Assembly: GCA_002392915.1 (NCBI GenBank)
Contig: DGHQ01000006.1
Coordinates: 10,631-74,630, forward strand
Length of the DNA stretch: 64,000 nucleotides
DNA from: Bacteroidales bacterium UBA3844
GTDB lineage: Bacteria > Bacteroidota > Bacteroidia > Bacteroidales > Paludibacteraceae
Direction of reading: 5' to 3'
Of the stretch, positions 8,684-55,351 are shown in pieces. The notes under the pieces are model-generated. The model saw only the letters and a program-made list of their open reading frames with translations, searched no databases and was not told where the DNA came from. Positions within the stretch are counted from its first letter, which is position 1; each line of letters begins with the position of its first letter. The position numbers and the translations under genes were made by a program.

Positions 8684-9880
8684 TCATTTAGCATTTATAT
8701 AGCACACTCTTCCAATCTTCCTCATCCACTCTTTGTTTTCGTCGTAGCTCTTTTCATCAGTCAAAACCCATACGAATTTAGTCCGTGTGAAAAAATCAAT
8801 TTTGGGTTGCGGCGCATATCCGTCTGTGAAGATTATCATTCCGTCGTAGACATTATGATTTTGAAGATAATCAATGACCACTTGGAAATCTGTGCCTCCT
8901 CTACCCTTCACTTCGCCACATTTCATTTGCTTGGCATCTTTTATACTGATTGGTTGCGGTGTCTGTAGCTGGCAGTCAAACTGTATTACGTCTATTTTCG
9001 ACACTCCATATCTGAACATGCGTCGCATCACTCCAAAGAAATTTGCCAATTCTGTATGAGTGACAGACAAACTTGTATCAACAGCTATCAGCAATCGCGT
9101 CTCCAGATCATATTTGCTTCCCATCTGTTGGAAATCAAATCGTCGGTTTGGACGCATTCGTGTCAGATGACGTTTGCTAGAGAGGATGGATGCGCGGAAT
9201 CCTGAAAGTGTTTTTCTATAATCTATTTTAGCTTTCGACGATGCGATTATCTTCTCCGTAAGATTTCCTGGAATGGAGCCCCAACTTTTTGAAGAATTTA
9301 TCTCTTCGATAAGTTCGTTGATTTTGTCACATCTTTCATCATCTTCTTCCCAGAGTGCCGCTCTGTCCGACATATTTCCGGGAACATCAGTGTTGAATCC
9401 TGAATTTGAATCTGATTTATCATTATTCCCGTCGTCATCATTGGAATCACCACCAGAATCTTTTAAATTTTCATCATTTATCTTTATCAGGTACCATTCG
9501 TAGAATTTTCCTGATTCAAGTCCGAAATCAGCGGGATTGACAAATCTGTATTCTTCAAATTTATAATGCCCATACAGTGTCATGTCGCTGGCGGCGATCA
9601 TTTTTTCGTTCGGACAGTTGACAGGACGACGTGAGTATGGATGCTTTAGGAAGACGCGGATCATTTCCGTCTTCATCAATTCTTCCAACTGATTGTCTGT
9701 CAACAATTTTATATAGTCTGCATTATATTCAATTCTGCCCTGTCCACATCTTATCGCACAATTCATATATGGATTTTCAGTCAGTGCATTTATGCAGTAG
9801 ACAGCAAAAAATGCAGGCTCACGAAGATACCACATATCCGCGAGCTGCTTAAATCTATCTTTTGCAATCAATTTCTCCAT
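8684..9880 (-). CDS. VWA-like domain protein (DUF2201-type: degenerate metallopeptidase-like N-domain plus VWA C-domain)
   Basis: 398 aa. The C-terminal part shows LLIAVDTSLSVT (a DxSxS MIDAS-like motif) ... GGTDFQVV ... IIFTDG. The N-domain resembles the DUF2201_N region but has TEMIR where HExxH would sit. An acidic low-complexity linker is present. A MoxR ATPase gene lies directly upstream. Confidence 0.7.
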   Translation of the reverse strand: MEKLIAKDRFKQLADMWYLREPAFFAVYCINALTENPYMNCAIRCGQGRIEYNADYIKLLTDNQLEELMKTEMIRVFLKHPYSRRPVNCPNEKMIAASDMTLYGHYKFEEYRFVNPADFGLESGKFYEWYLIKINDENLKDSGGDSNDDDGNNDKSDSNSGFNTDVPGNMSDRAALWEEDDERCDKINELIEEINSSKSWGSIPGNLTEKIIASSKAKIDYRKTLSGFRASILSSKRHLTRMRPNRRFDFQQMGSKYDLETRLLIAVDTSLSVTHTELANFFGVMRRMFRYGVSKIDVIQFDCQLQTPQPISIKDAKQMKCGEVKGRGGTDFQVVIDYLQNHNVYDGMIIFTDGYAPQPKIDFFTRTKFVWVLTDEKSYDENKEWMRKIGRVCYINAK

Positions 9881-9918
9881 ATAAAATTTATCTACGTTTT
9901 TGTCTATCGTCTATCTTA

Positions 9919-10986
9919 CTAAATGCCATCAACAAATTTCTGAATCTTTCCCAACAATTCAGGCATCTCAGAAACAATAAACATCACAGTATCAGGATAA
10001 TTTCCACCACTGAACAGAGAAGACCAATGTGCGAACGCTTCATTTTTATTCTCTTTTTCAAGCATCTCAACGTAGGCAGGAAGATTTTTCTTGACTTTTT
10101 CTTTCTCTTTATCATCTTTCAATCCCGTCTCCATATAGCGGAAAAGAGATTCATTCACAATGGATAATTCATGGAGTTGCAGTGACTTTAGCGTCTTCTC
10201 ATGCTTTTTGTAGTTCAGAAGAATTTCTTTTGCCGACGGCAATGCTTTCTTGCTGATGTATTCGAAAAACAGAGTTCCTGCCTGGTTTCCCACTATTCCT
10301 GAAATCAGTTTCTTATAAATCAAGTCGATGTTTGGTACATCGGTAATCAAATCACTCACTCTTTTCCAGCCACGTCTGTCTGGAGTCTTTTCAAGTCCAT
10401 TGTCAATATCTGTAGCCACACCGTCGAGTTGATCCGAATGTTCTTGGATAAAGTTTAAAACCCTCTCGTCGACTCCATTTTCTGCAGCCCACAATAGCCA
10501 TTCCGACGGTGTTGGTCGGAAATTATAGATGTTGAAACGAGAAACAAGTGCTGGATCCAAATCCGTCAGCTGATACTCTTCTCCTGAATTGACGGCTGAG
10601 ATTATACGGCTGCCTTCTGGCAATTGTTTGCCAGCCAATTTTTTATTCAGGGCAAGATCCATTATCGTCTGCAAAACTTCCGGACGTGCACGGTTCAACT
10701 CATCAAGGAAGAGAACGATTGGTTTTCCATCTGTAGGAAACCAATATGGCGGCATAAACTCAGTGTTGCCAGTCTTTTCATTTTTGAATGGCAAACCGAT
10801 CAAATCACCGGGATCACTCATCTGTCCGAGGAAAAGCGACACCACTTTCTTTCCCTTTGATGCAAAATATTTCGTGAGAATTTCCGATTTGCCTATTCCG
10901 TGCTTTCCGGAAAGCATGATATTTTGGTCTGCTGGAGTAAGATCAAGCAGTTGTATAAGTTCTTTAGAATTGACTGATATTGCCAT
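9919..10986 (-). CDS. MoxR-like AAA+ ATPase (AAA_5 type)
   Basis: 355 aa with Walker A SGKHGIGKSE, Walker B IVLFLDELNRA, and the sensor region (VLQTIMDL...R) typical of MoxR/NorQ-like ATPases. Confidence 0.8.
   Translation of the reverse strand: MAISVNSKELIQLLDLTPADQNIMLSGKHGIGKSEILTKYFASKGKKVVSLFLGQMSDPGDLIGLPFKNEKTGNTEFMPPYWFPTDGKPIVLFLDELNRARPEVLQTIMDLALNKKLAGKQLPEGSRIISAVNSGEEYQLTDLDPALVSRFNIYNFRPTPSEWLLWAAENGVDERVLNFIQEHSDQLDGVATDIDNGLEKTPDRRGWKRVSDLITDVPNIDLIYKKLISGIVGNQAGTLFFEYISKKALPSAKEILLNYKKHEKTLKSLQLHELSIVNESLFRYMETGLKDDKEKEKVKKNLPAYVEMLEKENKNEAFAHWSSLFSGGNYPDTVMFIVSEMPELLGKIQKFVDGI
10885..10908 (-). other. Walker A (P-loop) codons of the MoxR-like ATPase
   Basis: The reverse complement reads gga aag cac gga ata ggc aaa tcg = GKHGIGKS. 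Confidence 0.8.
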
Positions 10987-16979: not shown

Positions 16980-17297
16980 ATGAATCACGACAAAGAAATA
17001 GAACAAGGTTTGCTCAACATTGCAAAAAAAAACTCAGGCTTAGCCAAGTTCATATTGTTTGGATCAAGAGCAAGAGGTGACGCTCGCTCTGATTCAGACT
17101 GGGATATTCTTGTCGTTATCAACACAGACAAAATCAGACACGAAGACTATTGCAAATTTGCTGATCCATTCTACGATTTAGGTTTACAATACGACGCTGT
17201 AATCAACCCAATTCTACAAACATCTGAAAACTGGACAAAATTTTCATATCTTCCTCTGTTTAAGAATATACAAAAAGAAGGGAGAATACTATGCTGA
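16980..17297 (+). CDS. nucleotidyltransferase (MNT) antitoxin-like protein
   Basis: 105 aa with the minimal NTase motif LFGSRARGDARSDSDWDILVV. Confidence 0.8.
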   Translation: MNHDKEIEQGLLNIAKKNSGLAKFILFGSRARGDARSDSDWDILVVINTDKIRHEDYCKFADPFYDLGLQYDAVINPILQTSENWTKFSYLPLFKNIQKEGRILC

Positions 17298-17692
17298 CAG
17301 AAGAAGAAAGACAAGCTATCGTAACATACAGATTGGAGAAAGCAGAAAATGCGTTAAAACAAGTGGAAGCAAATATTGCCAATGAATTTTGGGATTTGAT
17401 TGCCAACAGATTATACTATGCTGCATATTATGCAGTTACAGCCTTGTTAATCAGTGAAAATCACGAAACGCATACACACAATGGTGTAATAACAATGTTT
17501 GGACTTCATTTTGTAAAAACTGATAAATTCACAAAAGAAGATCATAGATTATACCAACGTCTTTTCACACAAAGACAAACTGGAGACTACAGTGATAACT
17601 TCTTTCTTGATAAGGAGGATGTAATGCCCCAAATCGAACCTACAAAAAAATTTATCAAGAAAATTTCTGATTACTTATCAGAAAAGCATTAG
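17291..17692 (+). CDS. HEPN-domain protein (toxin partner of MNT)
   Basis: 133 aa, helical, with ANRLYYAAYYAVTALL and ...RQTGDY characteristic of HEPN. It overlaps the MNT gene by 7 nt. Confidence 0.8.
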   Translation: MLTEEERQAIVTYRLEKAENALKQVEANIANEFWDLIANRLYYAAYYAVTALLISENHETHTHNGVITMFGLHFVKTDKFTKEDHRLYQRLFTQRQTGDYSDNFFLDKEDVMPQIEPTKKFIKKISDYLSEKH

Positions 17693-17726: not shown

Positions 17727-19544
17727 TTACGCGATTACAATTCTTCTCACAAAATCGCTCTTTTTAAACGAAGGTATTGTGCCGATAACAAAATTATCTT
17801 CCTGCATATCACAGACGTAATAAACATCATCGTTATAAGAGAATACGTCGTTGCGTAATGCACCACACAAATCTTTGCAGACATTTTCTTTTTCCGCCAC
17901 TTCCAATGCCACTCGTCCATCTCGAGTCTGAAGTATATTAACTTTATAATCCATTGTGGTATAGATTGTTGCGGCAAGCATCGCACGATCCATCGCTGTG
18001 GCTTTTTTACTATAAAGTATCTCTTCTGCAGAACGAAGTCTACCTGCAGTCAAACTATTCTCTACCCTTTCAAACGACTCTCTGTCTTGCACAAAATCAA
18101 AAATCATCTGCATTCTCTGCACACTCGACAATCCTCGTTCAATTGTGATATTATCGATAAACCAACAAATCTTCTTAATATGAATGGAATCTTTCTCCTC
18201 TTCCACAAAATATCTTGCGACATCGGCAGGATCTCCGTCGGAATTCAACAATTCAGAATTGTTGTAATTCTGTGTCAATCTTGCCATTTCGGATCTATCA
18301 AATTTCAGACGTAACAGCAACTTGTTGTTGGTATTAACTCCTGAGATTGTCCAATCGTAATGGTTGATGGCAAACAATGCAGGGTTTGGATTAGGATCAT
18401 CCGCCCCGTCGTCGACTTTATTATCATCAACTTCATTTTGCTTTAACATCGGCAATAAAGGATCATCAACTTTCCATGGCTTGAAATTTTTCTTTTTAAA
18501 AGAACTCCAAGTGATTATAAATAAAAAAAACAAAATAATCCAATTGAGATCCACAGATGTATAGAAATATAGACCAACAAGCAAAAAGAATGACATAGCA
18601 AATAATGGACCGTTCATACCAGTCCATCTATTCAATAGACTCAAAAACTGGGTGAATTTTGTATTCTTGAAAGACAATTCGACATGAATTTCATGCATGA
18701 TAAACCAAATGAGTCCAAATGTCAACGACATAGCAATTCCATGAGGAAGAAATCTTATTGTACACTTGTCGTCTGCAGGATAAGGGATAAATAATTCCTT
18801 AAGAATAAACACCACGATGAATATCATGAGTGAAATGAAACATGTATCATTAATTGATGGTTTATGACGTGAATATCCTCCATCTGTCACAGTTGTGTCT
18901 AGTCGTTTACGGATATCTTCTTTGATGGCAAGGTATCCACACAACAACTTTCGCATAGGAAACAATTTGTCCACATCCTTTTTTTGTTTTCCAAACTCCC
19001 GGATTTTGTAGACTTCTGTTTCTTCAGCTTTTGTTTCAGAACTGTTTTTCGCTCCCTCCACTCCATCTTCTGGTAGAAGATCCACCTCATCTGGCACAAC
19101 CAATTCAGTCTCTGATGATGGCTTTGTAATAGTAGCTATATAATTATAACGAGAGAAAAAAGCTGCCCCCCAATCTTTTATCGTCTCAAAAGACAATTTT
19201 CCAGCAGATTCATCTGATCCTGTCACTCCGACCATGCATCCTTTGAACACCTCATCGTTCACTATCCAAGATTCGACAGGTTCATAATCGACAACATCGT
19301 CGTCTTCAAATGTCTTTCTTATATGAAGCTCTGCCTTATTATTCTTGATATAGATATGTCCGATTGGATTAACCGTACGTGGGAAATGTCCATCATATAT
19401 GGCAAAAGAATCATCCTCACGTACAATCTTACATTTTTCAGCAATTGCACGTGGCCATAATTTGTACCATATAAAGCAAGCCAACGCATATAGTAGCGTC
19501 GGAATCAGGATTCCTCCCAATATCATCAATATTAGATCACTCAT
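17727..19544 (-). CDS. uncharacterised polytopic membrane protein (gene 4 of the VWA/tubulin-like operon)
   Basis: 605 aa with an N-terminal TM (aa 4-28), a soluble ~200-aa region, four TMs (aa ~234-348), and a ~250-aa C-terminal soluble domain. Its start overlaps the upstream stop by 4 nt (ATGA at 19541-19544). Confidence 0.7.
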   Translation of the reverse strand: MSDLILMILGGILIPTLLYALACFIWYKLWPRAIAEKCKIVREDDSFAIYDGHFPRTVNPIGHIYIKNNKAELHIRKTFEDDDVVDYEPVESWIVNDEVFKGCMVGVTGSDESAGKLSFETIKDWGAAFFSRYNYIATITKPSSETELVVPDEVDLLPEDGVEGAKNSSETKAEETEVYKIREFGKQKKDVDKLFPMRKLLCGYLAIKEDIRKRLDTTVTDGGYSRHKPSINDTCFISLMIFIVVFILKELFIPYPADDKCTIRFLPHGIAMSLTFGLIWFIMHEIHVELSFKNTKFTQFLSLLNRWTGMNGPLFAMSFFLLVGLYFYTSVDLNWIILFFLFIITWSSFKKKNFKPWKVDDPLLPMLKQNEVDDNKVDDGADDPNPNPALFAINHYDWTISGVNTNNKLLLRLKFDRSEMARLTQNYNNSELLNSDGDPADVARYFVEEEKDSIHIKKICWFIDNITIERGLSSVQRMQMIFDFVQDRESFERVENSLTAGRLRSAEEILYSKKATAMDRAMLAATIYTTMDYKVNILQTRDGRVALEVAEKENVCKDLCGALRNDVFSYNDDVYYVCDMQEDNFVIGTIPSFKKSDFVRRIVIA

Positions 19545-22090
19545 GCCTTGTATTCGTAATTAATTCCTCCTAGTTCATCCCACGGAGTAAAGTCTTCTTC
19601 TGTTGAATCGCCAATATATTGTCTGAAAAGCTCATCTTTGTATGAAGACGGTACTTCTTGATTCTGTTTTTCATCCTCTTCATAATTACACTTTAGTCGC
19701 CAATCTATCTGGTCTTCAACCTTTTGCCATGTCACGACAAATAAATAAGGATCTGTCTCATGATGTTTGCAAACCAACGGTCCGACTTCATATCTGCGTG
19801 CTTCATCCATCTCAAACAGTTCATGTCTGGCTTTCGCCGCAAACTCTTTGTCGGCAGCACGAAGAAGCATAGGCTCCTCATCATTCGTAGTTACAAACAT
19901 TCCGTTTAACTCTGCCATCTTGTAAAGAGGACGGAATGTGATGCTGTCGCCATAATCACGGTGGAAATCGGCGAAGTCTTTTGGCACATTCGGCAGATTG
20001 TCCGTGAAACATTTCGCTATGCGACGATGCAACATCTCATAATCCTCATCAGCTTTTTCTGCTTCAAAATCAGCGTCTTCCTTGCCAAACAAACGGTTTC
20101 CAGGAAGTGTCACAATCTCAGATATGAATTTGTCTGCAAACAAATTCTGCAACATATCCTTGTAGTCTGTCTTCGTAAGTTCAGACAATTTACGCGTCTT
20201 ACGATTCAAATAAAGCATCGGCTCAACCAGTTCCGGATTCTTCACCAACGTCTCTCCTCCAAACTTTGCTTGTGTCAAATGTTGGTTGAACATTGTCTCC
20301 TTCACATTAACTGTCCACCAATCAGTTTTTTCCATTGCCAACTCATCTTTAGCCTTATCTATAAGCTTCATGACATGTCGTTTCTGCTGTGAACAGAAAT
20401 CGTAGAGATCATTGTAGAGATAATCCACCTGATCCTCATAATCCTGACGCATATTTTTGTTGACTTCAAGCAATGTGTTGGCAAGAAGCATCTTCTTTAA
20501 TTTTCTGACATACTTATAGTTACGAAAATACTTCGTAAACGATGCTATCCACGGAATTATGGCTCCAATTGTCACCCAAACCCATGAATATTCCGGTCTC
20601 ATCACATTATAATAAGTGCTATAAGCAGACAAATCCGTTATTGTAGGAAGTATTTCGTTTAAAAGATAAGGCACGACGTTGATAAGCACAAACACAATCA
20701 CGACACTCAACACTGCTGTCTTAGCGATCAATCCGAGCAACGTCGGTTCAAACTCAATTATGGAACTCAATTCTTTCACCAAATCCAAGTTTCTCTGCTG
20801 GGTTGTTCTGTCCGTGTCATCCTTAAAATCAAGGTAGAAATCTTTGATGAATTCCGGACATTTTACCATATCATCCTTGTCCTCTTTTGCCCGTTCCTTA
20901 TATTTGCAGATCTCTTCTTGCATAGTGTCATAATACGCAAGTGTCTGAGGCAGAGTGACATCCGGATTATATGAACTTCCTATAAAATATGAAGCAGACT
21001 CACGGATTGTACTCGCGGCTCTTTCATAAATTGCCTCACGATTTTTCACCATCGTGTCGACGGATTTGTATCTCAACGAATACGAAATCTGCTGGTGTCG
21101 TTTCACCAATGTGGAAGGAAGATGTTTCAGATATGTCTGGAAATAGTCACGAAGCAGATTGTATCTGTAGAAATTATAAATCGGATGTGGATCAGGATTC
21201 TCATAAAGTTTGTTGAAGACGTCGCCCAAATCGCATCCAGACTTTAGTTTTCCCTCCACTTTAGCCACATTACGCGCGATTTCATCATCGTCCTTGATAT
21301 CATCAGTTATGTAGTCGTAGTTGAGATTTTCATCTCGCACCAACGCTTTCAATATGTTGCGTCGGATATTCCAGGCATACATGTCGTGTTGGGCCTTGCC
21401 ATCGTAGAACACGGATGCGGCGCCAAGTGAATAGTAGCCATTCTGTGTGGCAAGATCATTGCCAAACACTGTGGCGTCGTTATCTCCACAGAAATAGACA
21501 GACAGCATATATTGGAACAGCAGATCAGTCAACTCATTGGTTTGCAGCTGACAATAGAATCTGTTTGCGACATACTGGTTTTCCTGATACAACACGACTC
21601 TGGCAAATTTCTTTTTCTCCATCATCGCATTCAGTTGCTCAAGAAACTCCACACATCTGCGTTTGTGCTGCAAGTCGTGCGACTGGTTGATTGCCTCCTT
21701 CACACATAAAAATCCAGTCTGCTCCAATCCACGATTAAGATGCGTCGAAAGTATATTTCCGAATTTGTCATCCAAAATAGATGGTAACAGATGAAAAATT
21801 TGCTGTGTGAGTTTTTCTTCCGCATTTCCAAGAATACAAACCTGAAGATTGATGAACGGAAATCCCTTTTCAAGGAAATAGTTCACCATACGCTGCCCTT
21901 CCCTCACCGTATATTCGATCATTGCATCAAAAGAATCCTTGTCGGCAATTCCTTTAATGCAACGACGGTTGGCAAGGTTGGTCACACGCCAGCAGTGACG
22001 TTGCTCGCGAGAAAGTTTGCGGAGATTTTCCGCCAACCTCTTGCGAACATCTATATCCTCATTAAGATTTATAACCCAAACAGGTGTCAT
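19541..22090 (-). CDS. uncharacterised large protein with a central TM hairpin (gene 3 of the VWA/tubulin-like operon)
   Basis: 849 aa with two hydrophobic helices at aa ~451-477 and ~501-521, flanked by ~450-aa and ~330-aa soluble regions. The start ATG shares one nt with the TGA of the upstream gene (TGATG at 22090). Confidence 0.7.
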   Translation of the reverse strand: MTPVWVINLNEDIDVRKRLAENLRKLSREQRHCWRVTNLANRRCIKGIADKDSFDAMIEYTVREGQRMVNYFLEKGFPFINLQVCILGNAEEKLTQQIFHLLPSILDDKFGNILSTHLNRGLEQTGFLCVKEAINQSHDLQHKRRCVEFLEQLNAMMEKKKFARVVLYQENQYVANRFYCQLQTNELTDLLFQYMLSVYFCGDNDATVFGNDLATQNGYYSLGAASVFYDGKAQHDMYAWNIRRNILKALVRDENLNYDYITDDIKDDDEIARNVAKVEGKLKSGCDLGDVFNKLYENPDPHPIYNFYRYNLLRDYFQTYLKHLPSTLVKRHQQISYSLRYKSVDTMVKNREAIYERAASTIRESASYFIGSSYNPDVTLPQTLAYYDTMQEEICKYKERAKEDKDDMVKCPEFIKDFYLDFKDDTDRTTQQRNLDLVKELSSIIEFEPTLLGLIAKTAVLSVVIVFVLINVVPYLLNEILPTITDLSAYSTYYNVMRPEYSWVWVTIGAIIPWIASFTKYFRNYKYVRKLKKMLLANTLLEVNKNMRQDYEDQVDYLYNDLYDFCSQQKRHVMKLIDKAKDELAMEKTDWWTVNVKETMFNQHLTQAKFGGETLVKNPELVEPMLYLNRKTRKLSELTKTDYKDMLQNLFADKFISEIVTLPGNRLFGKEDADFEAEKADEDYEMLHRRIAKCFTDNLPNVPKDFADFHRDYGDSITFRPLYKMAELNGMFVTTNDEEPMLLRAADKEFAAKARHELFEMDEARRYEVGPLVCKHHETDPYLFVVTWQKVEDQIDWRLKCNYEEDEKQNQEVPSSYKDELFRQYIGDSTEEDFTPWDELGGINYEYKA

Positions 22091-25000
22091 CAGTCTTTAC
22101 AAGTGAAATCCTCAAATGTCTTGAATTTGTCGTTAAGCACACGCAACATCTCTTTCAATGTCTCCATCTCCTGGAAACTCTGGGCTGTACGTGCATCTCT
22201 GTATTTTGTATCAAGAATTGTCTCGACTTTCTGTTTTGCCTGATTGAATCCCTGAACCAAAATATTGTTGTCCAATGCGTTGACTGCCTGCATATAGCGG
22301 TCGATGAAATTGTCGTAGTGGTCGCTCAAATAGCGTTTTCCAAACTCATTGCTCAACTCTGTGTAGAAGAGATTGCTGTAGCATGGAGTGTATTTGCGTC
22401 CCTTCTCCGCAATGTTGATCTGGATCTTCTTGTCGCCCAAAATCTCAAGCGACAAGTCTGTAGCCCAAACCACCGCATTGTTTTCAATCTCAAATGGTTT
22501 TTGACCATAAACGCCCTCCAAATACGACTTGTCTGGAATGACTACAAATTTTTTCATTGTAGATTCATCGTAGCTGCTTAGAATCATCAGTTTAAGCATT
22601 GCGATAGTTGCGTTTGACGCATCAAGTGGCAACAGACTCTTGATTTCATCCACGTTGCCGCCTGTTCTTGCAAATGCCTGATGGAAATGGTAGTACTCCT
22701 TCTTATCACATTTCTCATACTCCGACTTGATATTATGGTAAGTGCGGTAATACTCGAAATTCATTCCCGTCTTCGCCGTGATGATATAGAACAATTCAGA
22801 ATTGCTATGACCAATAAACTTTTGAGAGCTTGACTCCTGGAAGTTGAAAACCTTCTTTGCGTTGTCTCTATTGTCAGCCACACAGAAATCCCTCTGTTCC
22901 AGAACACCATCCATTTGACCGATGTTGTAAGAGAAGAACAATGTTGGAGCAAGACGTTTTGTCACCTCATCTAGCTGATCTGTAGTAAGTTCGTTGATAA
23001 GATCTGGCAATTTCTTGTCGTACCATCCATTCACGGCCGAATTTCTGCGGCACATCAAGCCAAACGCTTTGTATGCGAAATTCAGAATATCGTCGATTGT
23101 CTTCTCAGCGCTGCGTTCTGTATTGATGAAGAACTTAGATTTCAGAGTTGCCTCGCCATTTTCATCCAATGCCTCCACAATATAGTTGGCAGACTTCAAA
23201 TCTGGCTCAATCTGATTCTTCATTGTATGGAAGAAATCAGTCAACGCTTCTGTAGTAGGCACACGCACATTGCCAGAAACGGCCTCTTTGTCTGGAGTAA
23301 TCAGTTTCTCATAATACTCAGCGAACAAGTTGTCTCGTTTCCAACCGTCGCCATTAGCGAATTCACAAATATTTGGCAGGTAGACGGAAGTGATGTCCTC
23401 TTTCTTTGCTCTGAATGTCTCTGCAAGATTCTTGAAACTCTGTTTTGGTCCCTTCTCGCTCAACAATGCAGTCTTTGCAGCTTCCGACAACGCTCTCAAA
23501 TGACGTGCCACAACGTCCAAGAATCCATTTTCACCGTAGCAGAATGATTTGATAAGTTCAAAAATCTTATTCTCGACTAGAATCTCACGTTTAAGTTCCA
23601 ATCCTCTCTTGTAGACGCTGTAAACATTGGCTATGTCGTCGGCGTTGTTGTTGATGTGAACCATCTCAAGGAAAGTTCTCTCCTCAGCTTTCTCTCTTGC
23701 TGAATCAAGGTCACTTTTCTCCTTGCTGCTTGACGATTTCTCATATTTAGTGTTCTGACGGTTCAATTCGCTCTTTGTCTGCAAGTGCGACGCATAATCT
23801 GCGATGATTGAATCCTGAATCATATCCTTGTCCTTGTCGTAGTGGTTGAACAAAGATGTACACTCTTCATCAAGTCGCTCGACAGCTGCAATTGTATTCT
23901 GAAGTCCGATTTCTGTAACCAAATCCTCGACACATGACCAAATTTTCTGCTCAAGTGCATCTTGTGTCGACTTCTGCAATGCGTCGTTGTCCTGATCTTC
24001 AATCACGTCGGCTAGACTCTGAGTCGTCTTCTTGACTGCAGAATTCATCTTGCCGGCATCAAACTTGTCCACTCGTTTGTCGCCCTCTATCACACCTGCT
24101 CGCGACTCTGAGAAGTTAGTCTTGATAGCCTGAGTCATCTGATTGCGGATTTCGCTGAAATAGTTGTTATCTCCATCAGGATTAAGCACATAGGCATTGA
24201 TAGTGTCCTTGATTAGATTCTCGACAACTTTATTCAAGTCCACTTTATTTGCCTTGTCGTTGACTGACTTTCCAAGGATACAGTGTTCAAGCAAATCAGC
24301 CTGAATACGGCATTTCATATAGTCGTCGAAATCAGTGCTTGGCTTCTTCAACGCCACATATCCCATCGGAAGTAGGAAATTCTTCTCAGTGCCAGGAGCC
24401 ACCTCTCCGTCGCGAGTGTTATCCATGAACGACTCAAAACCTCTTGCACCTGGGCCATCGTGAAGATAACATAGAAGTTCAGCTGTATTCGAATACATGC
24501 TGTCAAGATTACCTAGGTTGTTGCCAGCCTCTGTCTGGAAATCAACAGGAATCAAGGCTTCAAATGGTCTGTATGGTAGCGACGTGTTGATGCGCGAATA
24601 ACGGTCGTTCAATGCGAGACGGTGGAACAAAGTGGCTGTCTCTGGCTTCTTCGACCATGCCATCTCCGCCTCCAACTCTGACATAACGGCAAACGCATTG
24701 CGTGGATACTTCTCATTGCGTCCGTTGTGGTCGATATACCACTGCGGCATATACATTGTAAGGATAACCTTTGGATCTGCTTCGTCGATTGTTGCCTTGT
24801 GCATCATGTTCACGAAATACAACACATCGTTGATGATACCTGAACCTGTGCCTCCCAAACTTGAACAAACGACCCAGTAGCATACCGTGTTGTTGTCGGC
24901 AGCGTTGTCCTCTATCTTATTCAAATCCTGAATATTCTTCACAAGTTTCTCACAAAACTGATCGGCAAGACGGGCGAATGCGGTACGTGATTTCAAACGA

Positions 25001-25398
25001 AATGCTCCGGCTCCAAATTTCAAAGCTCGGTTATCCATGTGCATAGCCACCTCGTCATCACAAGCCTCTATGATACGCTTGTTGATCTGGATCTCCTGCG
25101 CCGCCTTAGCCTTTTGGTAGATGACGTAAGGATTCTGGGTTCCAAGGTTTATAAGCTCATTCGTGGAAAGCATTTTCACACGTCCGTTCTCATATTTAGT
25201 ACGGAATTTTTCATTAAGGTTGTCAATGTCTCCGGCGTCAGTGTCGATGAACATAAAACGATAGTTGTCATTCATCACGTCAACCTTACTACGGTTGCCA
25301 CTGACATTCTGAAGGCTTTCATACACCTTCATCTTGATTAGAGCCACAGTCTTCGAGCCTGCACCTCCACAGCCGATAAAAATATGTTTTCTTGCCAT
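22090..25398 (-). CDS. FtsZ/tubulin-superfamily GTPase-like protein with ~900-aa helical extension (gene 2 of operon)
   Basis: 1102 aa and no TM. The N-terminal ~200 aa carry, in order, IGCGGAGSK (T1-like), IDTDAGDI (compare FtsZ NTDAQAL), FGAGAFRLKSR (T3-like) and SSLGGTGSGIIND (tubulin signature GGGTGSG-like T4). Confidence 0.75.
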   Translation of the reverse strand: MARKHIFIGCGGAGSKTVALIKMKVYESLQNVSGNRSKVDVMNDNYRFMFIDTDAGDIDNLNEKFRTKYENGRVKMLSTNELINLGTQNPYVIYQKAKAAQEIQINKRIIEACDDEVAMHMDNRALKFGAGAFRLKSRTAFARLADQFCEKLVKNIQDLNKIEDNAADNNTVCYWVVCSSLGGTGSGIINDVLYFVNMMHKATIDEADPKVILTMYMPQWYIDHNGRNEKYPRNAFAVMSELEAEMAWSKKPETATLFHRLALNDRYSRINTSLPYRPFEALIPVDFQTEAGNNLGNLDSMYSNTAELLCYLHDGPGARGFESFMDNTRDGEVAPGTEKNFLLPMGYVALKKPSTDFDDYMKCRIQADLLEHCILGKSVNDKANKVDLNKVVENLIKDTINAYVLNPDGDNNYFSEIRNQMTQAIKTNFSESRAGVIEGDKRVDKFDAGKMNSAVKKTTQSLADVIEDQDNDALQKSTQDALEQKIWSCVEDLVTEIGLQNTIAAVERLDEECTSLFNHYDKDKDMIQDSIIADYASHLQTKSELNRQNTKYEKSSSSKEKSDLDSAREKAEERTFLEMVHINNNADDIANVYSVYKRGLELKREILVENKIFELIKSFCYGENGFLDVVARHLRALSEAAKTALLSEKGPKQSFKNLAETFRAKKEDITSVYLPNICEFANGDGWKRDNLFAEYYEKLITPDKEAVSGNVRVPTTEALTDFFHTMKNQIEPDLKSANYIVEALDENGEATLKSKFFINTERSAEKTIDDILNFAYKAFGLMCRRNSAVNGWYDKKLPDLINELTTDQLDEVTKRLAPTLFFSYNIGQMDGVLEQRDFCVADNRDNAKKVFNFQESSSQKFIGHSNSELFYIITAKTGMNFEYYRTYHNIKSEYEKCDKKEYYHFHQAFARTGGNVDEIKSLLPLDASNATIAMLKLMILSSYDESTMKKFVVIPDKSYLEGVYGQKPFEIENNAVVWATDLSLEILGDKKIQINIAEKGRKYTPCYSNLFYTELSNEFGKRYLSDHYDNFIDRYMQAVNALDNNILVQGFNQAKQKVETILDTKYRDARTAQSFQEMETLKEMLRVLNDKFKTFEDFTCKD
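24838..24855 (-). other. tubulin-signature-like T4 loop codons (GGTGSG)
   Basis: The reverse complement reads gga ggc aca ggt tca ggt, within VVCSSLGGTGSGIIN. Confidence 0.7.
25354..25374 (-). other. T1-like glycine loop codons (GCGGAGS) of the tubulin-like protein
   Basis: The reverse complement reads ggc tgt gga ggt gca ggc tcg. Confidence 0.7.
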
Positions 25399-25465: not shown

Positions 25466-27121
25466 TCACACGTTTCCATCAATATCAAGATTGATGTCTT
25501 TTCCTCCACGCGGATCCCTGATCTGCAAAGGAATCGTAGTGGAATATTTGATGGTTGATGAGCCGCCCGACGTGTAGTCGTCACCTCCGTTCAAACTGTA
25601 TTCCTGTGAATTGGTGACAGTAACTTCATATTTTGGCTCGATGCTCCAATGAAGAATCGGAACAAATAGTTTTGCTATATATTTCTTCTGTTTGAAGACG
25701 ACGTTGCATTCCGCTTTCTCCACATCAATTGTGAGATTGCTCACACGTCCGTTGATCTCCTCTGTGCAGATTTTTTTAGTTCCCTGAGTGAGTATGTATT
25801 CACCGCGAAGTTTATACTTGTCGCTGCAATTACGCTTAATGCAATAAATCACACTTAATATGTAGATAATAATAAGTATCCACATTATACAATACCATTT
25901 GAATGCCATCGGATGACAGAACACATTTTCCTGTGGCAACTCTATGCTTGCCTCAATTGTTTGGTTATCCTTACCCATCAGTTTGATCAACTCAGCCTCG
26001 TATGGCACTTTGAATGAGATGTGAGCCTTCAATCTTCCGTTAGGTTTCTCAAAGTGTGGATTAAAGAGATTCTCATCGTTTCCACGGATCTGCGCAATAT
26101 TGACAAATGACTCTTCACTTCCGTCGCTACTCATCAAATGAGGCAGTTTCAACTCCGGATGATCCTCACACTCATCTTCATCAGCCATCACAAGATGCAT
26201 TCTGCGGTCGGTGATGGAAATGGAGTCGAGAGTAATCGCGTCGAACACATCGTTTGGAACCCACGACATTGTCATCGACATATGTCCGTCTATATCCACG
26301 TCGACGGAATTGATAGTTGCTCCAGCCTCCTGGGTCATCTTGCCAATCAAAAACTGTTTGAATTTTTCAAGTGCGATGTCATTCTTCATCTGGTCAAACC
26401 AGCTTTGCAAAGCCTGTTCGTTTGAGACAGGAATAGTCTGAGGCTTAAACATGGAGAAAGCATTCATTATATCATCAGTGCTCGTCTCCCCACTACCCAT
26501 CTTTGGCAATTCCAATGCCACAAGTTTGATATTTTTTCCTGCCAATTCCTTTTCGATTCTCGAACGGTAATCATCCAGACGAAGTTTCTTTGGATGTCCG
26601 GCGACGGGATCATTAAGAAAATCGGTGATAAGAAACACAAATTTCAGATTATTTCTGCCAGTGCGTGTAAGGTCTTTTTCAAGATACTCAAGCATATTGA
26701 GCAGGTCTGTATAGGCAGTGAATTTTTTTCTTTCTTCAGCCGACGCTGGTTTGTCATACACACGGTCGGCATAGCTGACAAGGCTCTGTCTCATTGCTGA
26801 ATTCACGATTCCGAAACCGTTTGGCTCATTCTTTGCCTCGCCTCCAAACTTGATGACTGATACATAATCACCGTCCTGAACGGAGCGAAAAAAACTTTTT
26901 AGAGCAGGAACTACGATTTTTTCATATTTGTTCATTGTTCCAGACACATCAATAGCGAAGACATAATCAGCGTGTTCATTTTTAAGTTCTTCGCCGAATT
27001 TCTTCATTAGTTCAGGAAAATCATTTGCCAACGCATCGAAAGCACGGTTATCTTGTGCGGTAGACGTTGCAAATCCAAGCATCAGCAACAGAACAGATAT
27101 GTATAATCTAATCAATTTCAT
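25466..27121 (-). CDS. secreted, membrane-anchored von Willebrand factor A (VWA) domain protein (gene 1 of operon)
   Basis: 551 aa with Sec signal MKLIRLYISVLLLMLGFATSTAQD. VWA MIDAS residues are complete: DVSGT (aa 58-62), T at YTDL, D at LITDF. A single TM sits at aa ~406-429, followed by a ~120-aa beta-rich tail. Confidence 0.75.
   Translation of the reverse strand: MKLIRLYISVLLLMLGFATSTAQDNRAFDALANDFPELMKKFGEELKNEHADYVFAIDVSGTMNKYEKIVVPALKSFFRSVQDGDYVSVIKFGGEAKNEPNGFGIVNSAMRQSLVSYADRVYDKPASAEERKKFTAYTDLLNMLEYLEKDLTRTGRNNLKFVFLITDFLNDPVAGHPKKLRLDDYRSRIEKELAGKNIKLVALELPKMGSGETSTDDIMNAFSMFKPQTIPVSNEQALQSWFDQMKNDIALEKFKQFLIGKMTQEAGATINSVDVDIDGHMSMTMSWVPNDVFDAITLDSISITDRRMHLVMADEDECEDHPELKLPHLMSSDGSEESFVNIAQIRGNDENLFNPHFEKPNGRLKAHISFKVPYEAELIKLMGKDNQTIEASIELPQENVFCHPMAFKWYCIMWILIIIYILSVIYCIKRNCSDKYKLRGEYILTQGTKKICTEEINGRVSNLTIDVEKAECNVVFKQKKYIAKLFVPILHWSIEPKYEVTVTNSQEYSLNGGDDYTSGGSSTIKYSTTIPLQIRDPRGGKDINLDIDGNV
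26936..26950 (-). other. MIDAS DxSxT codons of the VWA protein
   Basis: The reverse complement reads gat gtg tct gga aca = DVSGT. Confidence 0.75.
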
Positions 27122-27327: not shown

Positions 27328-27993
27328 CTATTTTTTGCTTTCTTCTTGGTTTATTTTGAAAAGGACAGGCAATGTAAATTTAGTACGAACGGTATCACCC
27401 ATCTGTGTGCCAGGCTTCCACTTTGGCATCATGCTCACAACACGTACTGCCTCTTCATCCAAAGCTGGATGGACACCTCGTACGACTTCAACATCTGTGA
27501 TAGTGCCATCTTTTTCAACTGTAAATTTTACAATAACTCTACCTTGAATACTTGAATCTTGTGCTGCCTTGGGATAAACCAAATTAGACTTTAGAAATTC
27601 CATCAGGGCTTTCTGTCCCCCTGGAAATTCAGGACGCCGTTCAACAATTATACCCATTAAATCTTCATCATCATCATCAGTATCAGAAGCGGATATTGTC
27701 ATTGAATCTCCACGATTAGTATTCTCCGTTTCATTGCTGGCTGCGACACTTGAAGCCAACGTCATCACCGTCGCCAAGCCAACAATCTTCACCGCTTTGC
27801 CTGCCATCTTGCGTATATTCAGCTGATTCTCAATATATCGCATCTCAGATTCACACACAGGACATGTACCCATACAATCGCCTTCGTGAGTACACACTCT
27901 TGGTTCGTATGGGATTTCATTGGCATCCGCAATCTGTTTGCGGATGGATTTTAATGTCTCACATGTTTGTTTTCCTTTGTACATAAGCCTCAA
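27328..27993 (-). CDS. TonB C-terminal domain protein with Cys-rich cytoplasmic N-terminal module (paralog 1)
   Basis: 221 aa; the likely start is MYKGKQ at 27984. Cys-rich N-module CETLK..x22..CTHEGDCMGTCPVCE, TM AVKIVGLATVMTLA, and TonB-C (PEFPGGQKALMEFLKSNLVYP...GRVIVKFTVEKDGTITDVEVVRGVHPALDEEAVRVVSMMPKWKPG). Confidence 0.75.
   Translation of the reverse strand: MRLMYKGKQTCETLKSIRKQIADANEIPYEPRVCTHEGDCMGTCPVCESEMRYIENQLNIRKMAGKAVKIVGLATVMTLASSVAASNETENTNRGDSMTISASDTDDDDEDLMGIIVERRPEFPGGQKALMEFLKSNLVYPKAAQDSSIQGRVIVKFTVEKDGTITDVEVVRGVHPALDEEAVRVVSMMPKWKPGTQMGDTVRTKFTLPVLFKINQEESKK
27733..27993 (-). repeat. paralogous N-terminal module, copy 1 (dispersed tandem-gene repeat)
   Basis: By eye, the DNA encoding ...CP.CESEMRYIENQLNIRKMAGKAVKIVGLATVM matches the other two copies closely. 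Confidence 0.6.
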
Positions 27994-28013
27994 TTGTTAT
28001 GTCCGACGGAATA

Positions 28014-28808
28014 TTATTCCATCTCATTAATAGATTTATGACTTCCTTCTGATCCATTTGCTTTGAACAAGATAGGCAAATAATATCTGCTTCTGACAAT
28101 TTTTCCCTTATTCGTCGCAGGAATCCACTTTGGCATCTTGTTCACAAAATTGATAGCCGCTTCATCCAATGCTGGATGAACACTTCGAACGATATCAACA
28201 TTGGTAATAGAGCCGTCTTTCTCAACAACAAAGCCTACAATCACTCGTCCCTGAACACCCCCATCACTAGGATAAACTAAATTATTCTTAATAAATGTCA
28301 TAAGCGAGTCTTTCCCTTGAGGATATTGAGCTTTTTGATCTACTATTGAAAAAATCGCCGTATCTTCTCGTGCTTCATCTATTGCATCCCAGGAATCCAT
28401 TTCCTCTTTAGACGGGTGATACCCAGGACATACAACAATTGGTGGCGGAGGTGTATCTATAGGTTCACTTGTTTCTTCAAGTGATGAATCTGCGGAAACA
28501 GGAATCAATTCTGTTGTGTCAACGGTATTGTTTTCAACAGATGGCTGTGGCTGAGGTTGTTGAGCATCATTACACGCCGACAACGACATCACCGTCGCCA
28601 AACCAACAATCTTCACAGCTTTGCCAGCCATCTTGCGTATATTCAGCTGATCTTCTATATAACGTATCTCCGACTCACATGTAGGACATGTGCCAAGACA
28701 ATCTTCCTCAAGTGCACATTTAATAGGTGCATACGGGATATCATTGGCATCAGCGATTTGCTTACGGATTGCTTTCAATGTCTCACATATTGGTTTTCCT
28801 TGGTTCAT
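28014..28808 (-). CDS. TonB C-terminal domain protein with Cys-rich N-terminal module (paralog 2)
   Basis: 264 aa with the same N-module and TM, a Pro/Gln-rich linker (QQPQPQPS, PPPPIVV), and one TonB-C domain. Confidence 0.75.
   Translation of the reverse strand: MNQGKPICETLKAIRKQIADANDIPYAPIKCALEEDCLGTCPTCESEIRYIEDQLNIRKMAGKAVKIVGLATVMSLSACNDAQQPQPQPSVENNTVDTTELIPVSADSSLEETSEPIDTPPPPIVVCPGYHPSKEEMDSWDAIDEAREDTAIFSIVDQKAQYPQGKDSLMTFIKNNLVYPSDGGVQGRVIVGFVVEKDGSITNVDIVRSVHPALDEAAINFVNKMPKWIPATNKGKIVRSRYYLPILFKANGSEGSHKSINEME
28569..28808 (-). repeat. paralogous N-terminal module, copy 2
   Basis: Same conserved ~80-codon block as at 27733-27993 and 29785-30024. Confidence 0.6.
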
Positions 28809-28848
28809 AATTTTTTTATTTTCGTGGATTATCTACGATTCATCTATA

Positions 28849-30024
28849 TCACTCATCTAACTTGAAAAGAACAGGCAAATTAAACTTTGAACTAACTACC
28901 GTATCCCTGATTGTTGCAGGCTTCCATTTCGGCATCTTTTTAACGACACGAAACGCCTCTTCTTTTAATAATTGATTATCACAAGAAGAATGTATATTTG
29001 ACAAAGCCCCATCTTTTTCTACAACAAACTCCACATTAACACTATAATATTTGCCAGTATCCAGAGGTGTATCATCAGCATAGATAGTATTACCAACTTC
29101 TTTTCTTAAATCACTGCAAATCCAAAATCTACCACCATCAAAATCATACTGATTATCATATAAATAATAAGAGTCCAGTGCTTCCAAATCAGATTTTGAG
29201 TAGACCAAATTTTCTTTTAAAAAATCAAACAATGCCTTTTTTCCACCAGGAAATTCTGGTTGCTTCTCTACTCTTACAAAATACAAATCTCGATCGTCTG
29301 GAATATTGATATTGTAATGATCAAACGTTTTTCGAGGGACAAAAAATCCTAATGATTCATACCTGAAAAATATTGGCACATGGAACTTTGAACATACAGG
29401 CTTGCCATTACACATTGCAGGTTTCCACTTCTCCATTCCCTTCACCACACGAACAGCCTCTTCGTCTAAACATGGATATAGAGTTTTTTTAACCGCAACA
29501 TTTGAAATTGATCCATCTTTCTCAACAATAAAAGAAATCGTGGCCGTACCTTCAATTCCTTCAACCATTGCGGCTTCTTTATAATGTACATTAAATATAA
29601 AATAAAATGCCAGACTATCTGGAGCTACAGCATGTTCCAATGTATCAAACAGATCATTATAATCAGCACATATTTCATCCTCTACAGGAATAAACGGAGT
29701 TTCCCCCTCTCTGTCTCCGATATAGTCATAAACTATTTCTTTTTGATTTAATTCATCAGGAAGTATTGAAACACTATCTGTAATATTACACGCAGACATA
29801 GACATCACCGTCGCCAAACCAACAATTTTCACAGCTTTGCCAGCCATTTTGCGTATATTCAGCTGATTCTCAATATATCGCATCTCAGATTCGCACGCAG
29901 GACATGTGCCCATACAATCGCCTTTGTGTGTACACACTACTGGCTCGTATGGGATCTCATTCGCATCCGCAATCTTCTTACGTATCGCTTTCAATGTCTC
30001 ACATTTATGTTTTCCTTGGTACAT
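28849..30024 (-). CDS. TonB C-terminal domain protein with Cys-rich N-terminal module (paralog 3, two TonB-C-like domains)
   Basis: 391 aa with the same N-module and TM, then two TonB-C-like units (..ISFIVEKDGSISNVAVKK..MEKWKPA.. and ..PEFPGGKKALFDFLKENLVY..VEFVVEKDGALSNI..MPKWKPA..). Confidence 0.7.
   Translation of the reverse strand: MYQGKHKCETLKAIRKKIADANEIPYEPVVCTHKGDCMGTCPACESEMRYIENQLNIRKMAGKAVKIVGLATVMSMSACNITDSVSILPDELNQKEIVYDYIGDREGETPFIPVEDEICADYNDLFDTLEHAVAPDSLAFYFIFNVHYKEAAMVEGIEGTATISFIVEKDGSISNVAVKKTLYPCLDEEAVRVVKGMEKWKPAMCNGKPVCSKFHVPIFFRYESLGFFVPRKTFDHYNINIPDDRDLYFVRVEKQPEFPGGKKALFDFLKENLVYSKSDLEALDSYYLYDNQYDFDGGRFWICSDLRKEVGNTIYADDTPLDTGKYYSVNVEFVVEKDGALSNIHSSCDNQLLKEEAFRVVKKMPKWKPATIRDTVVSSKFNLPVLFKLDE
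29785..30024 (-). repeat. paralogous N-terminal module, copy 3
   Basis: Same conserved block. Long identical runs with copy 1 include ttgcgtatattcagctgattctcaatatatcgcatctcagattc. Confidence 0.6.
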
Positions 30025-48658: not shown

Positions 48659-48920
48659 CTATCTTCTCATCAATGTGAAATGTCCTTCATACAGCTTATC
48701 AATCTCAGGAACATCAAGTATATACCAGTAGTCTGTAGACGGTAATTTTCTGCCATTATACTCACCACTCCATCCATCTGTGTTTCCTTTTTCCTTAAAA
48801 AGTAGTTTTCCAAATCTGTCGTAAATATACAACACTGAATTTGGATAATTTTCTATATTCTCGACTACCCAGTTTTCATCACCTTGGTAGAAATAAATTG
48901 GAAATTCTGGCTCAATAAAT
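48659..48920 (-). other. T9SS type-B sorting (CHU_C-like) C-terminal domain
   Basis: ...NWVVENIENYPNSVLYIYDRFGKLLFKEKGNTDGWSGEYNGRKLPSTDYWYILDVP...GHFTLMRR. Confidence 0.65.
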
Positions 48921-53860: not shown

Positions 53861-54093
53861 CTCTTGTTAATTTTAAGTAGTATTTGGTTGTCAGATGAAT
53901 AAGTCATCTTTTATTCTTTAATATAATAATCAAACAATGAAGGACACCACAAACTTCTAATATATATCACTGACAATCAATGCAAAGATATTAATATTTT
54001 TATATTTTAACAAATAATAAGGTTCGTTAACATTTCAAAACGACAAAAACATAATATTTTTGCGAGGTAAACAAAAAATAATGAATTCAGCTT

Positions 54094-54933
54094 ATGAAAA
54101 AAATATTAATAGCAGTTGTCGCTGCACTTTCTATATCTTCATGCAGCAGAGCAAACAGAAATACAGAACCTGCTGCAAGTGCAGAAATAGCACAAGAATA
54201 CCTTTCAGAAGAAATAGTTGAAGCCTCTTCCGCAAATTCAACTCCAGTTCCTTCCGCAGACACCCGTAAACTGATTGCTAAAGGTAATGTAGAGATAAAA
54301 GTTAAGCCAGAAAATGTAGATTCTATTTACGACAATATCAATGCTTTAATCAAAAAGCACAATGGATATAAGAGTTCTGAAAAACAGAATGAATTTCGTT
54401 ATTCTGTCTCAGCATCTATTCCGTCAGCCTCTTTTGAAGATTTCACTGATGCCTTAAACAAGGTTGGAGGAAAAATGTCTGACAAATCTATTAATGTCCA
54501 AGATGTCACAGACGCTTATACCGATTTAATATCTGAAATCAAAAGCAAAGAAGCCGCTCTTGAACAATATCGAGTTTTACTAAAACGTGCCAACAAAATT
54601 TCAGAAATAATTGAAATCCAAACAAAAATCGACTACATTCAAAATGACATAGACATTATGAATGGTCGACGCATCAATATAGACCGTAAGGTGGCTTACA
54701 GTGTAGTAGACATAGACCTTATCATTGTTAAAAAGGAGATGGCAAAGGACGACGACGATGACACTCCTTCATTTGGCTCCGAATTAGTTGATTCCTTATC
54801 TGACGGCTGGGCTATAATCAAATTTTTAGTTGTGTTCTTGCTACGTTTGTGGCCATTCTTTATTGTTGGAGGGGCAGGATATTTCTTCTATAAAAAAAGA
54901 AAAAAAGACTCTAAAACTTCATCAAAAAATTAA
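54094..54933 (+). CDS. DUF4349-like lipoprotein with C-terminal membrane anchor
   Basis: 279 aa with lipobox ALSISSC. The central ..VQDVTDAYTDLISEIKSKEAALEQYRVLLKRA..IEIQTKIDYIQNDID.. and the C-terminal TM match the DUF4349 layout. Confidence 0.6.
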   Translation: MKKILIAVVAALSISSCSRANRNTEPAASAEIAQEYLSEEIVEASSANSTPVPSADTRKLIAKGNVEIKVKPENVDSIYDNINALIKKHNGYKSSEKQNEFRYSVSASIPSASFEDFTDALNKVGGKMSDKSINVQDVTDAYTDLISEIKSKEAALEQYRVLLKRANKISEIIEIQTKIDYIQNDIDIMNGRRINIDRKVAYSVVDIDLIIVKKEMAKDDDDDTPSFGSELVDSLSDGWAIIKFLVVFLLRLWPFFIVGGAGYFFYKKRKKDSKTSSKN

Positions 54934-55029
54934 TTCTGTTTGACACCAAAATTTTTGTAATGTTTCTTGTGTAAACAAAAAAGAAAAGATTATTTTTGTA
55001 CTAGAAACAAGAATTTAATTTCATAGAAG

Positions 55030-55305
55030 ATGATAAGACTAAATGTATTTATTCAGGTTGAGGAGAAGAACCAGTCTGAGTTGTTAGGTATGGTAAAGGA
55101 GTTGGTTGAACTTTCTCAGGCTGAGAACGGATGTATCGCGTATGACGTATTTGAGAGTTCTACTCGTTTTGACGTTATGATGATTTGCGAGACTTGGAAA
55201 GACAATGAGACTTTGATTGCTCATACTCAAAGCGAGCACTACAAAAGAATCATGCCTAAGATTCACACTTTGGGTCAGTTCAAAACAGAGAAGTTTGAGT
55301 TTTAA
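55030..55305 (+). CDS. antibiotic-biosynthesis-monooxygenase (ABM) domain protein / putative quinol monooxygenase
   Basis: 91 aa with a ferredoxin-like pattern (IRLNVFIQV...GCIAYDVFES...ICETWKDNETLIAHTQSEHYK). Confidence 0.65.
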   Translation: MIRLNVFIQVEEKNQSELLGMVKELVELSQAENGCIAYDVFESSTRFDVMMICETWKDNETLIAHTQSEHYKRIMPKIHTLGQFKTEKFEF

Positions 55306-55324
55306 TCAAAATGATTTCCATAAC

Positions 55325-55351
55325 GGCAGGCTCTTTTGCCTGCCTTTTTTT
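55325..55351 (+). terminator. rho-independent terminator of the ABM gene
   Basis: GGCAGGC-tctttt-GCCTGCC followed by T7. Confidence 0.75.

Follow-up and report, generated by a model that had tools for sequence, protein, structure and literature searches.

A tubulin-fold protein of the FtsZl1 (Tubulin_2) family and its conserved four-gene cassette in Bacteroidales

The window analyzed here, a stretch of 64,000 nucleotides from Bacteroidales bacterium UBA3844 (a Paludibacteraceae-like metagenome-assembled genome; contig DGHQ01000006.1 of assembly GCA_002392915.1), encodes a protein of 1102 amino acids (aa) that is a divergent relative of FtsZ and tubulin and belongs to the FtsZl1 family (Pfam Tubulin_2). 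Every GTP-contacting loop is conserved in its tubulin-fold nucleotide-binding domain (aa 1-375), its gene is translationally coupled to those of three membrane proteins, one facing the periplasm and two facing the cytoplasm, and the resulting four-gene cassette is conserved as a unit under strong purifying selection, with ratios of non-synonymous to synonymous substitution rates (dN/dS) of 0.02-0.19. The FtsZl1 family was already published in 2010 in near-identical terms and has its own Pfam entry; the window reveals no new family.

The open reading frame (ORF) put forward in the original prediction proved to be real, with an ATG start on the minus strand, a point missed in that prediction; translation of the same interval on the plus strand gives many stops, so that a plus-strand reading was rejected. 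The product is 100% identical to its counterpart in UBA3743. The gene and its N-terminal domain are placed as follows:

22090..25398, minus strand: FtsZl1/Tubulin_2 family protein, 1102 aa, ATG start
24274..25398, minus strand: N-terminal tubulin/FtsZ-like GTPase domain, aa 1-375, recognized by Pfam, invariant columns, hhalign, spacing and Foldseek

The tubulin/FtsZ type of this GTP-binding domain, as anticipated from its motifs, is borne out by both family and fold. The match to Pfam Tubulin_2 (PF13809; E 2.9e-22, 79.9 bits against a cut-off of 27) extends over aa 6-367 and takes in positions 1-352 of the 356-position profile, and the same domain is carried by 55 of the 55 homologues found. 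A full-chain AlphaFold2 model, built on the homologue alignment, was confident, with a mean predicted local distance difference test score (pLDDT) of 85.6 and a predicted template-modelling score (pTM) of 0.70, and its top Foldseek matches in the PDB are beta-tubulin, CetZ1, CetZ2 and the FtsZ of Aquifex (2r6r), with a probability of 1.00; in fact, tubulin, CetZ or FtsZ make up all 50 of the 50 matches listed, at that same probability. The alignments cover about 375 columns with target-normalized template-modelling scores of 0.43-0.48, a range that fits just the N-terminal nucleotide-binding domain. Past strand S6 (aa 281-285) the model shows helices and one strand (aa 345-351) and no S7-S10 sheet. 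On account of this single strand and of the score range, the C-terminal domain of FtsZ and tubulin is confirmed to be absent, in agreement with what had been read from the sequence.

It could be argued that the glycine motifs belong to a nucleotide-binding domain of another fold (ParA/MinD, dynamin or generic Rossmann) and that the likeness to tubulin is superficial, given that a profile hidden Markov model (HMM) of the subfamily found no FtsZ or tubulin chain among PDB sequences, that hhalign against the single E. coli FtsZ sequence is weak (E 0.08, overall probability 0.7%), and that the score for Pfam Tubulin (PF00091) falls under its cut-off (25.5 against 33 bits). The subfamily is too divergent for HMM-to-sequence detection and fold comparison is therefore needed; however, such a fold was rejected on the Foldseek matches and the full-length Tubulin_2 match, and it is rendered very improbable as well by the lack of a Walker A motif (GxxxxGK[ST]) in FtsZl1 and by the preserved T1-T3-T4-T5-T6-H7 order with a T6-to-H7 spacing equal to that of FtsZ. 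The structure prediction thus gave neither the ParA-like nor the dynamin-like fold that had been named beforehand as the refuting outcome, both being excluded by the identity of the top Foldseek matches. Within the superfamily, the protein is not a canonical cell-division FtsZ: neither an FtsZ_C Pfam match nor an NCBIfam FtsZ match was found for it, the C-terminal conserved peptide and the dcw context are missing, and its neighbors encode vWA, TonB and membrane proteins.

The elements recognized in the GTPase domain are, by residue:

T1, G9-G14
DTD, 52-54
T3 GAGA, 129-132
T4 GGTGSG, 182-187
T5 YMP, 216-218
T6-like IPVD, 283-286
H7-like YSNTAE, 302-307
candidate T7-like DNTRD, 326-330

The four motifs quoted in the original prediction are all found at the residues assigned to them (IFIGCGGAGSK 6-16, FMFIDTDAGDI 48-58, FGAGAFRLKSR 128-138 and VVCSSLGGTGSGIIND 176-191). 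Across the 42 aligned homologues in which residue conservation was scored, with identities as low as 29%, G9, G11, G12, G14, D52-T53-D54, G129-A130-G131-A132 and G182-G183-T184-G185-S186-G187 are invariant, and M217-P218 of T5 are conserved. Owing to the Pfam match, to these invariant loop residues and to a dN/dS of 0.004-0.02 in the GTPase domain, the resemblance of the motifs to FtsZ and tubulin is far beyond chance. Both the order and the spacing of the loops had been expected to match FtsZ, which is correct for the order and incorrect for the spacing before T6, where family-specific inserts amount, relative to E. coli FtsZ, to approximately +17 residues from T1 to DTD, +51 from DTD to T3, +17 from T3 to T4, +7 from T4 to T5 and +36 from T5 to T6.

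There is also evidence for counterparts of T6 and H7 in FtsZl1, which the 2010 paper could not establish. The alignment register obtained with hhalign sets IPVD 283-286 on IPND 163-166 of E. coli FtsZ, the 19 residues between IPVD and Y302 equal those between IPND and F182, and E307 lies five residues past the aromatic Y302, matching D187 in FtsZ; P284, D286 and N304 do not vary, and at least 90% of the homologues have Y302, T305, A306 and E307. Based on this register, on the FtsZ-equal spacing and on the conservation of P284, D286, Y302, N304 and E307, both segments are likely to be equivalent to those of FtsZ. Further along the chain, the distance of 25 residues from Y302 to N327 is the same as that from F182 to N207 in E. 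coli FtsZ, N327 is invariant, D326 is present in at least 90% of the homologues and, in those aligned sequences that were inspected, an acidic residue follows at position 330 or 331; the confidence of the model is below 50 at residues 330-332. Judged by spacing and conservation only, D326-N327-x-x-D330 is a candidate non-canonical T7, and the earlier view that T7 is missing holds for the canonical NxDxxD/E sequence and needs to be softened in the light of a conserved DNxxD at the T7-equivalent distance.

Beyond the GTPase domain (approximately 1-375) the protein is laid out as a helical region (376-667), an alpha/beta region of unmatched fold (668-1010) and a helical tail (1011-1102). A charged helical region of about 750 residues had been proposed to follow residue 330 or so, and the full-chain model does contain helical segments at 354-667 and helices at 1012-1099; the region is not uniform, as residues 668-1010 form an alpha/beta globular part with about 18 strands. 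Two features were delimited in this part of the gene:

22093..23541, minus strand: C-terminal 483 residues (aa 620-1102), modelled separately (pLDDT 82.8)
22672-23397, minus strand: aa 668-675 and 902-909, with the invariant polar residues D668, T670 and H904-x-H906 (within YYHFHQAF)

The model of aa 620-1102 is confident, yet structure searches with it gave no match, the best E being 0.6 for the PDB and 0.13 for BFVD, and the dN/dS of this segment is 0.03-0.07. Read from conservation in sequence, D668, T670 and H904-x-H906 look like a putative metal- or ligand-binding site.

FtsZl1 is the second of four co-directional genes, and the remaining three encode the following proteins:

25466..27121, minus strand: vWA protein, 551 aa, upstream partner (VWA_2 E 6.8e-5)
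19541..22090, minus strand: 849-aa downstream partner, a membrane hairpin between large soluble N- and C-terminal parts
17727..19544, minus strand: fourth gene, 605 aa, an N-terminal transmembrane segment plus four transmembrane segments and a C-terminal transglutaminase-like (DUF553/Transglut_core) domain

The vWA and FtsZl1 genes are separated by 67 bp, the FtsZl1 gene overlaps that of the 849-aa protein by 1 nt, and the latter overlaps the fourth gene by 4 nt. Scans for sigma-70 promoters and terminators were uninformative, with counts near the shuffled expectation and Bacteroidales promoters not covered, and NCBIfam holds no model for any cassette protein.

The vWA protein comprises a signal peptide, a periplasmic vWA domain, a transmembrane helix at about 410-428 and a tail of about 120 aa (aa 430-551), which the positive-inside rule, as read from the sequence, places in the cytoplasm. 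Its metal ion-dependent adhesion site (MIDAS) is intact (D58-x-S60-x-T62, T138 and D167), with D58, S60, T138 and D167 being invariant, and the vWA orthologue beside P0036 gives solid VWA_2/VWA_3 matches. In the 849-aa protein, the first segment of the hairpin (459-477) scores above threshold and the second (approximately 501-520) was read by eye; no known domain was found in it by Pfam, including 23 orthologues, and no match in the PDB. The possibility that this protein is a cryptic tubulin paralogue which provides T7 in trans was rejected, given an hhalign probability of 0.4% between its profile and that of FtsZl1 and the lack of PDB and Pfam matches. Regarding the fourth gene, the transglutaminase-like Pfam match is found in 10 of 20 orthologues, and the active-site motifs GDCDCKA...HAA are kept by most of those in Bacteroidales, whereas in the clade of the window (aa ~515-560) GDCDCKA is replaced by KATAMDRA and HAA by GRVA, a change of Cys to Thr and of His to Arg. 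Since the catalytic residues lost here are kept in most orthologues, the copy in the window is probably a pseudo-enzyme. In other clades an FGE-sulfatase domain is added to the fourth gene.

In approximately 65 of 76 Bacteroidales loci the order vWA, FtsZl1 and 849-aa homologue is kept, with identities of 20-40%, and about 40 of these roughly 65 cassette loci also have a recognizable fourth gene; the flanking genes are not kept. When 1.84 billion representative proteins were searched with a profile, 1479 clusters came up at E<=1e-3, of which 133 reached E<=1e-30, and the best 150 clusters listed are mostly 1050-1150 aa long and aligned across most of their length, so that the whole multidomain architecture represents an established and widespread family. 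This four-gene version belongs to gut and rumen Bacteroidales. The annotated genera of its relatives include Bacteroides, Phocaeicola, Alistipes and Parabacteroides, and orthologous cassettes are present in metagenome-assembled genomes assigned to Bacteroides, Phocaeicola and Parabacteroides. The dN/dS is about 0.02 for the whole FtsZl1 gene and no higher than 0.07 in any of its regions, 0.02-0.06 for the vWA gene, about 0.1 for the 849-aa gene and 0.09-0.19 for the 605-aa gene. Among close relatives the downstream genes diverge faster (63-90% identity, against 93-100% for the core), yet an arms-race signature was rejected for them, as gene-wide values of only 0.09-0.19 reflect relaxed constraint and show no sign of positive selection. 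No plasmid homologues were found. A single record named as phage, MT836542.1 (L077; 6931-9792; 'UNVERIFIED: Bacteriophage sp.', 9.8 kb, from human feces), contains a Tubulin_2 match (E 1e-59) next to genes for an LPG-synthase-like protein, an amidohydrolase and two proteins of about 735 aa of no assigned kind; since none of its ORFs of at least 150 aa is a phage hallmark gene, it is probably a misclassified bacterial contig.

These observations are in close accordance with the computational description of FtsZl1 by Makarova and Koonin (2010, Biol Direct 5:33; PMC2875224), who reported that inserts peculiar to the family lie between T1 and T4, that the middle of the protein is a coiled coil and its C-terminal domain has no relation to FtsZ, that T6-H7 and T7 could not be confidently identified, and that the operons include MIDAS-intact vWA proteins and membrane proteins, and who proposed a role in membrane remodeling or vesicle biogenesis. 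The protein of the window likewise has about 1000-1100 aa, an FtsZ-like domain at the N terminus with T1, a GGTGSG T4 and family-specific inserts in the stretch from T1 to T4, a middle part that is helical/coiled-coil, a C-terminal domain other than that of FtsZ, no T7 that aligns with confidence, and an operon with a vWA membrane protein and lineage-specific membrane proteins; moreover, the Bacteroides caccae example of that paper has a 535-aa protein and a cysteine protease on its flanks, a parallel to the vWA and transglutaminase-like proteins found here. In contrast, we observe a fixed four-gene Bacteroidales cassette that lacks the GTPase, kinase and OmpA partners, an alpha/beta C-terminal region where the paper describes a 'mostly alpha-helical' one, and T6 and H7 counterparts at a spacing identical to that of FtsZ. 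In a later phylogenetic study Tubulin_2 proteins served only as an outgroup (PMC9871819).

With FtsZ itself the protein shares the N-terminal fold, T1 (GxGGxG), (N/D)TD, T3 (GAGA), T4 (GGTG(S/T)G), T5 (xxP), T6 (IPxD) and an H7 aromatic residue with an acid five residues later, but it lacks the S7-S10 subdomain, the NxDxxD T7 and the C-terminal peptide that binds FtsA and ZipA, carries about 130 extra residues within the GTPase domain and about 730 C-terminal to it, and is encoded in a vWA/membrane-protein operon and not in the dcw cluster. TubZ/RepX, PhuZ and CetZ are also divergent tubulin-fold proteins outside cell division, and CetZ1 and CetZ2 are among the top structural matches; however, those proteins (approximately 330-480 aa) keep the activation domain and T7, whereas FtsZl1, at about 1100 aa, has neither that domain nor a canonical T7 and is not linked to a centromere-binding protein or to a phage.

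Based on the conserved nucleotide-binding domain, the coupling and conservation of the operon and the predicted topology of its partners, we favor, with moderate confidence, the hypothesis that FtsZl1 is the cytoplasmic GTP-binding core of a four-protein inner-membrane complex, in which GTP-regulated assembly is coupled to the periplasmic vWA domain. FtsZl1 would bind GTP and, depending on the nucleotide, self-associate (or change its conformation like a switch) on the cytoplasmic side of the inner membrane, where the two downstream membrane proteins would hold it. The vWA protein, by means of its transmembrane helix and tail, may link this assembly to metal-dependent binding of a ligand in the periplasm. 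Hydrolysis of GTP would probably be triggered by a non-canonical element, either DNxxD (326-330) acting in trans or, alternatively, the conserved C-terminal domain of FtsZl1 itself (D668, T670 and H904-x-H906) acting in cis, and the output may be local remodeling of the membrane or envelope, or the regulated assembly of the partner proteins, and not cell division.

Several points weigh against this hypothesis. A canonical T7 (NxDxxD/E) is not present in FtsZl1, and past S6 the hhalign alignment carries no confidence (overall probability 0.7%) and adopts another register at the T7-like segment, while AlphaFold draws residues 316-332, which hold that segment, as a helix. As the C-terminal domain, which forms half of the longitudinal interface, is missing along with a canonical T7, filament formation is not assured. 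The loss of Cys and His in the fourth gene of the window clade implies that an enzymatic output is not universal, and the partner domains (vWA, FGE-sulfatase and an inactive peptidase-like domain) would also fit a conflict system. Finally, a full-text search of the available literature retrieved no paper that reports GTP binding, polymerization or a phenotype for any FtsZl1 protein.

The same absence of the C-terminal domain and of a canonical T7 leads to a possible, though rather unlikely, explanation in which FtsZl1 does not polymerize and acts as a monomeric or dimeric GTP switch that regulates its membrane partners in the manner of a signaling G protein, with its C-terminal domains as an activator or effector in cis. 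A pTM of 0.70 for a chain of 1102 aa is suggestive of a compact multidomain particle and not of a domain on a flexible coiled coil, the polar residues D668, T670, H904 and H906 are invariant in a C-terminal region with a dN/dS of about 0.03, and non-polymerization is among the three possibilities given by Makarova and Koonin (PMC2875224). Nevertheless, according to the authors' response in that same paper all characterized members of the FtsZ/tubulin superfamily make filaments, and the conserved DNxxD at the T7-equivalent distance also weighs against this explanation.

A second alternative, which we regard as doubtful, is that the cassette constitutes a conflict system directed at phages or other invaders, in which the vWA protein or the fourth component senses the intruder, FtsZl1 works as a nucleoside triphosphate-dependent thresholding or multimerizing module, and the response is membrane damage or growth arrest. 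Such a role was proposed for modules of tubulin and extracellular vWA proteins in the DO-GTPase/GAP1-N2 systems (Kaur, Burroughs, Iyer and Aravind 2020, eLife 9:e52696; PMC7159879), where proteins with a tubulin domain and a C-terminal helical or coiled-coil part adjoin transmembrane proteins with an extracellular vWA domain, as FtsZl1 does, and where membrane-proximal, variable accessory modules include FGE-sulfatase (FGS). The modularity of the fourth gene by clade (transglutaminase-like alone, combined with FGE-sulfatase, or catalytically dead) is typical of such systems, and the faster divergence of the downstream genes and the presence, in some strains only, of an MntA-like nucleotidyltransferase pair directly downstream would also be in keeping with it. 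However, the published systems are found in Firmicutes and Actinobacteria and are defined by DO-GTPase, GAP1 and FNIII, and no DO-GTPase or other P-loop GTPase, GAP1, HSP70 or FNIII was detected in the cassette by Pfam, in a search that included 23 orthologues of the 849-aa and 20 of the 605-aa protein. PADLOC-DB v2 gave no match for FtsZl1, the 849-aa or the 605-aa protein and only a marginal one for the vWA protein (E 0.0066). Likewise, purifying selection acts on each of the four genes and nothing overall points to positive selection, the neighborhood is of a housekeeping nature (IMPDH, HtrA, GyrA and AspRS), no homologue resides on a plasmid, and the sole phage match is the unverified contig mentioned above.

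More speculatively, FtsZl1 could be a new kind of tubulin-fold machine, a proposal that we consider unlikely in its full form: a set of about 700 residues of unmatched fold would replace the C-terminal/T7 interface, activation would rely on DNxxD or, in cis, on the HxH-containing domain, and together with a periplasmic MIDAS-vWA sensor and two membrane partners the protein would build an envelope-spanning, GTP-driven device for signaling, immunity or vesiculation in gut Bacteroidales. No characterized system has this organization.

Several other features of the window were recorded. At 16980-17692 on the plus strand two small overlapping genes run towards the end of the cassette and encode a 105-aa MntA-like nucleotidyltransferase (NCBIfam MntA_antitoxin at E 3e-8, below cut-off, and a weak HalB match) and a 133-aa ORF with no NCBIfam match; the pair looks like a type VII toxin-antitoxin-like module and, as it is present in L001 and L007 only and absent from the close relatives L002, L003 and L018, it is regarded as a strain-variable insertion. 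Directly upstream of the cassette, at 27328-30024 on the minus strand, three tandem genes (221, 264 and 391 aa) encode TonB C-terminal domains, and the number and identity of the TonB-domain genes at this site vary among near-identical relatives (45-93% identity). The minus-strand interval 40324-43244 holds adjacent genes for a 555-aa AAA ATPase and a 416-aa protein with an FGE-sulfatase domain, the same domain that joins the fourth cassette gene in other clades. At 8684-10986, also on the minus strand, a 398-aa protein with a VWA-like DUF2201 domain lies beside a 355-aa ORF, possibly a second vWA-containing module. A 1733-aa protein (48659-53860, minus strand) that carries several Ig-like domains together with a CHU_C type IX secretion signal is a probable surface protein exported by the type IX secretion system. 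The GC skew is positive only at 54000-58000, where the genes turn to the plus strand (54094-57412), and negative in the rest of the window, where they lie on the minus strand.

FtsZl1 has been described as the branch that diverged most in structure within the FtsZ/tubulin superfamily, and sixteen years after its computational description our literature search found no experimental test of any member. The question that it poses is whether a tubulin-fold GTPase can work without the C-terminal domain and the T7 loop that define cytomotive filaments. The window offers a compact, well-conserved and strongly constrained four-gene version of the system, some relatives of which belong to genera that may be genetically tractable, and the Bacteroidales cassette is consequently a reasonable entry point to the study of FtsZl1, with G183/T184, D286, Y302, D326/N327/D330 and H904/H906 as the residues singled out for mutation. 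Should the cassette turn out to be an envelope-remodeling or immune device, it would bear on the biology of outer-membrane vesicles in Bacteroidales or on the interactions between phages and their hosts in the gut.

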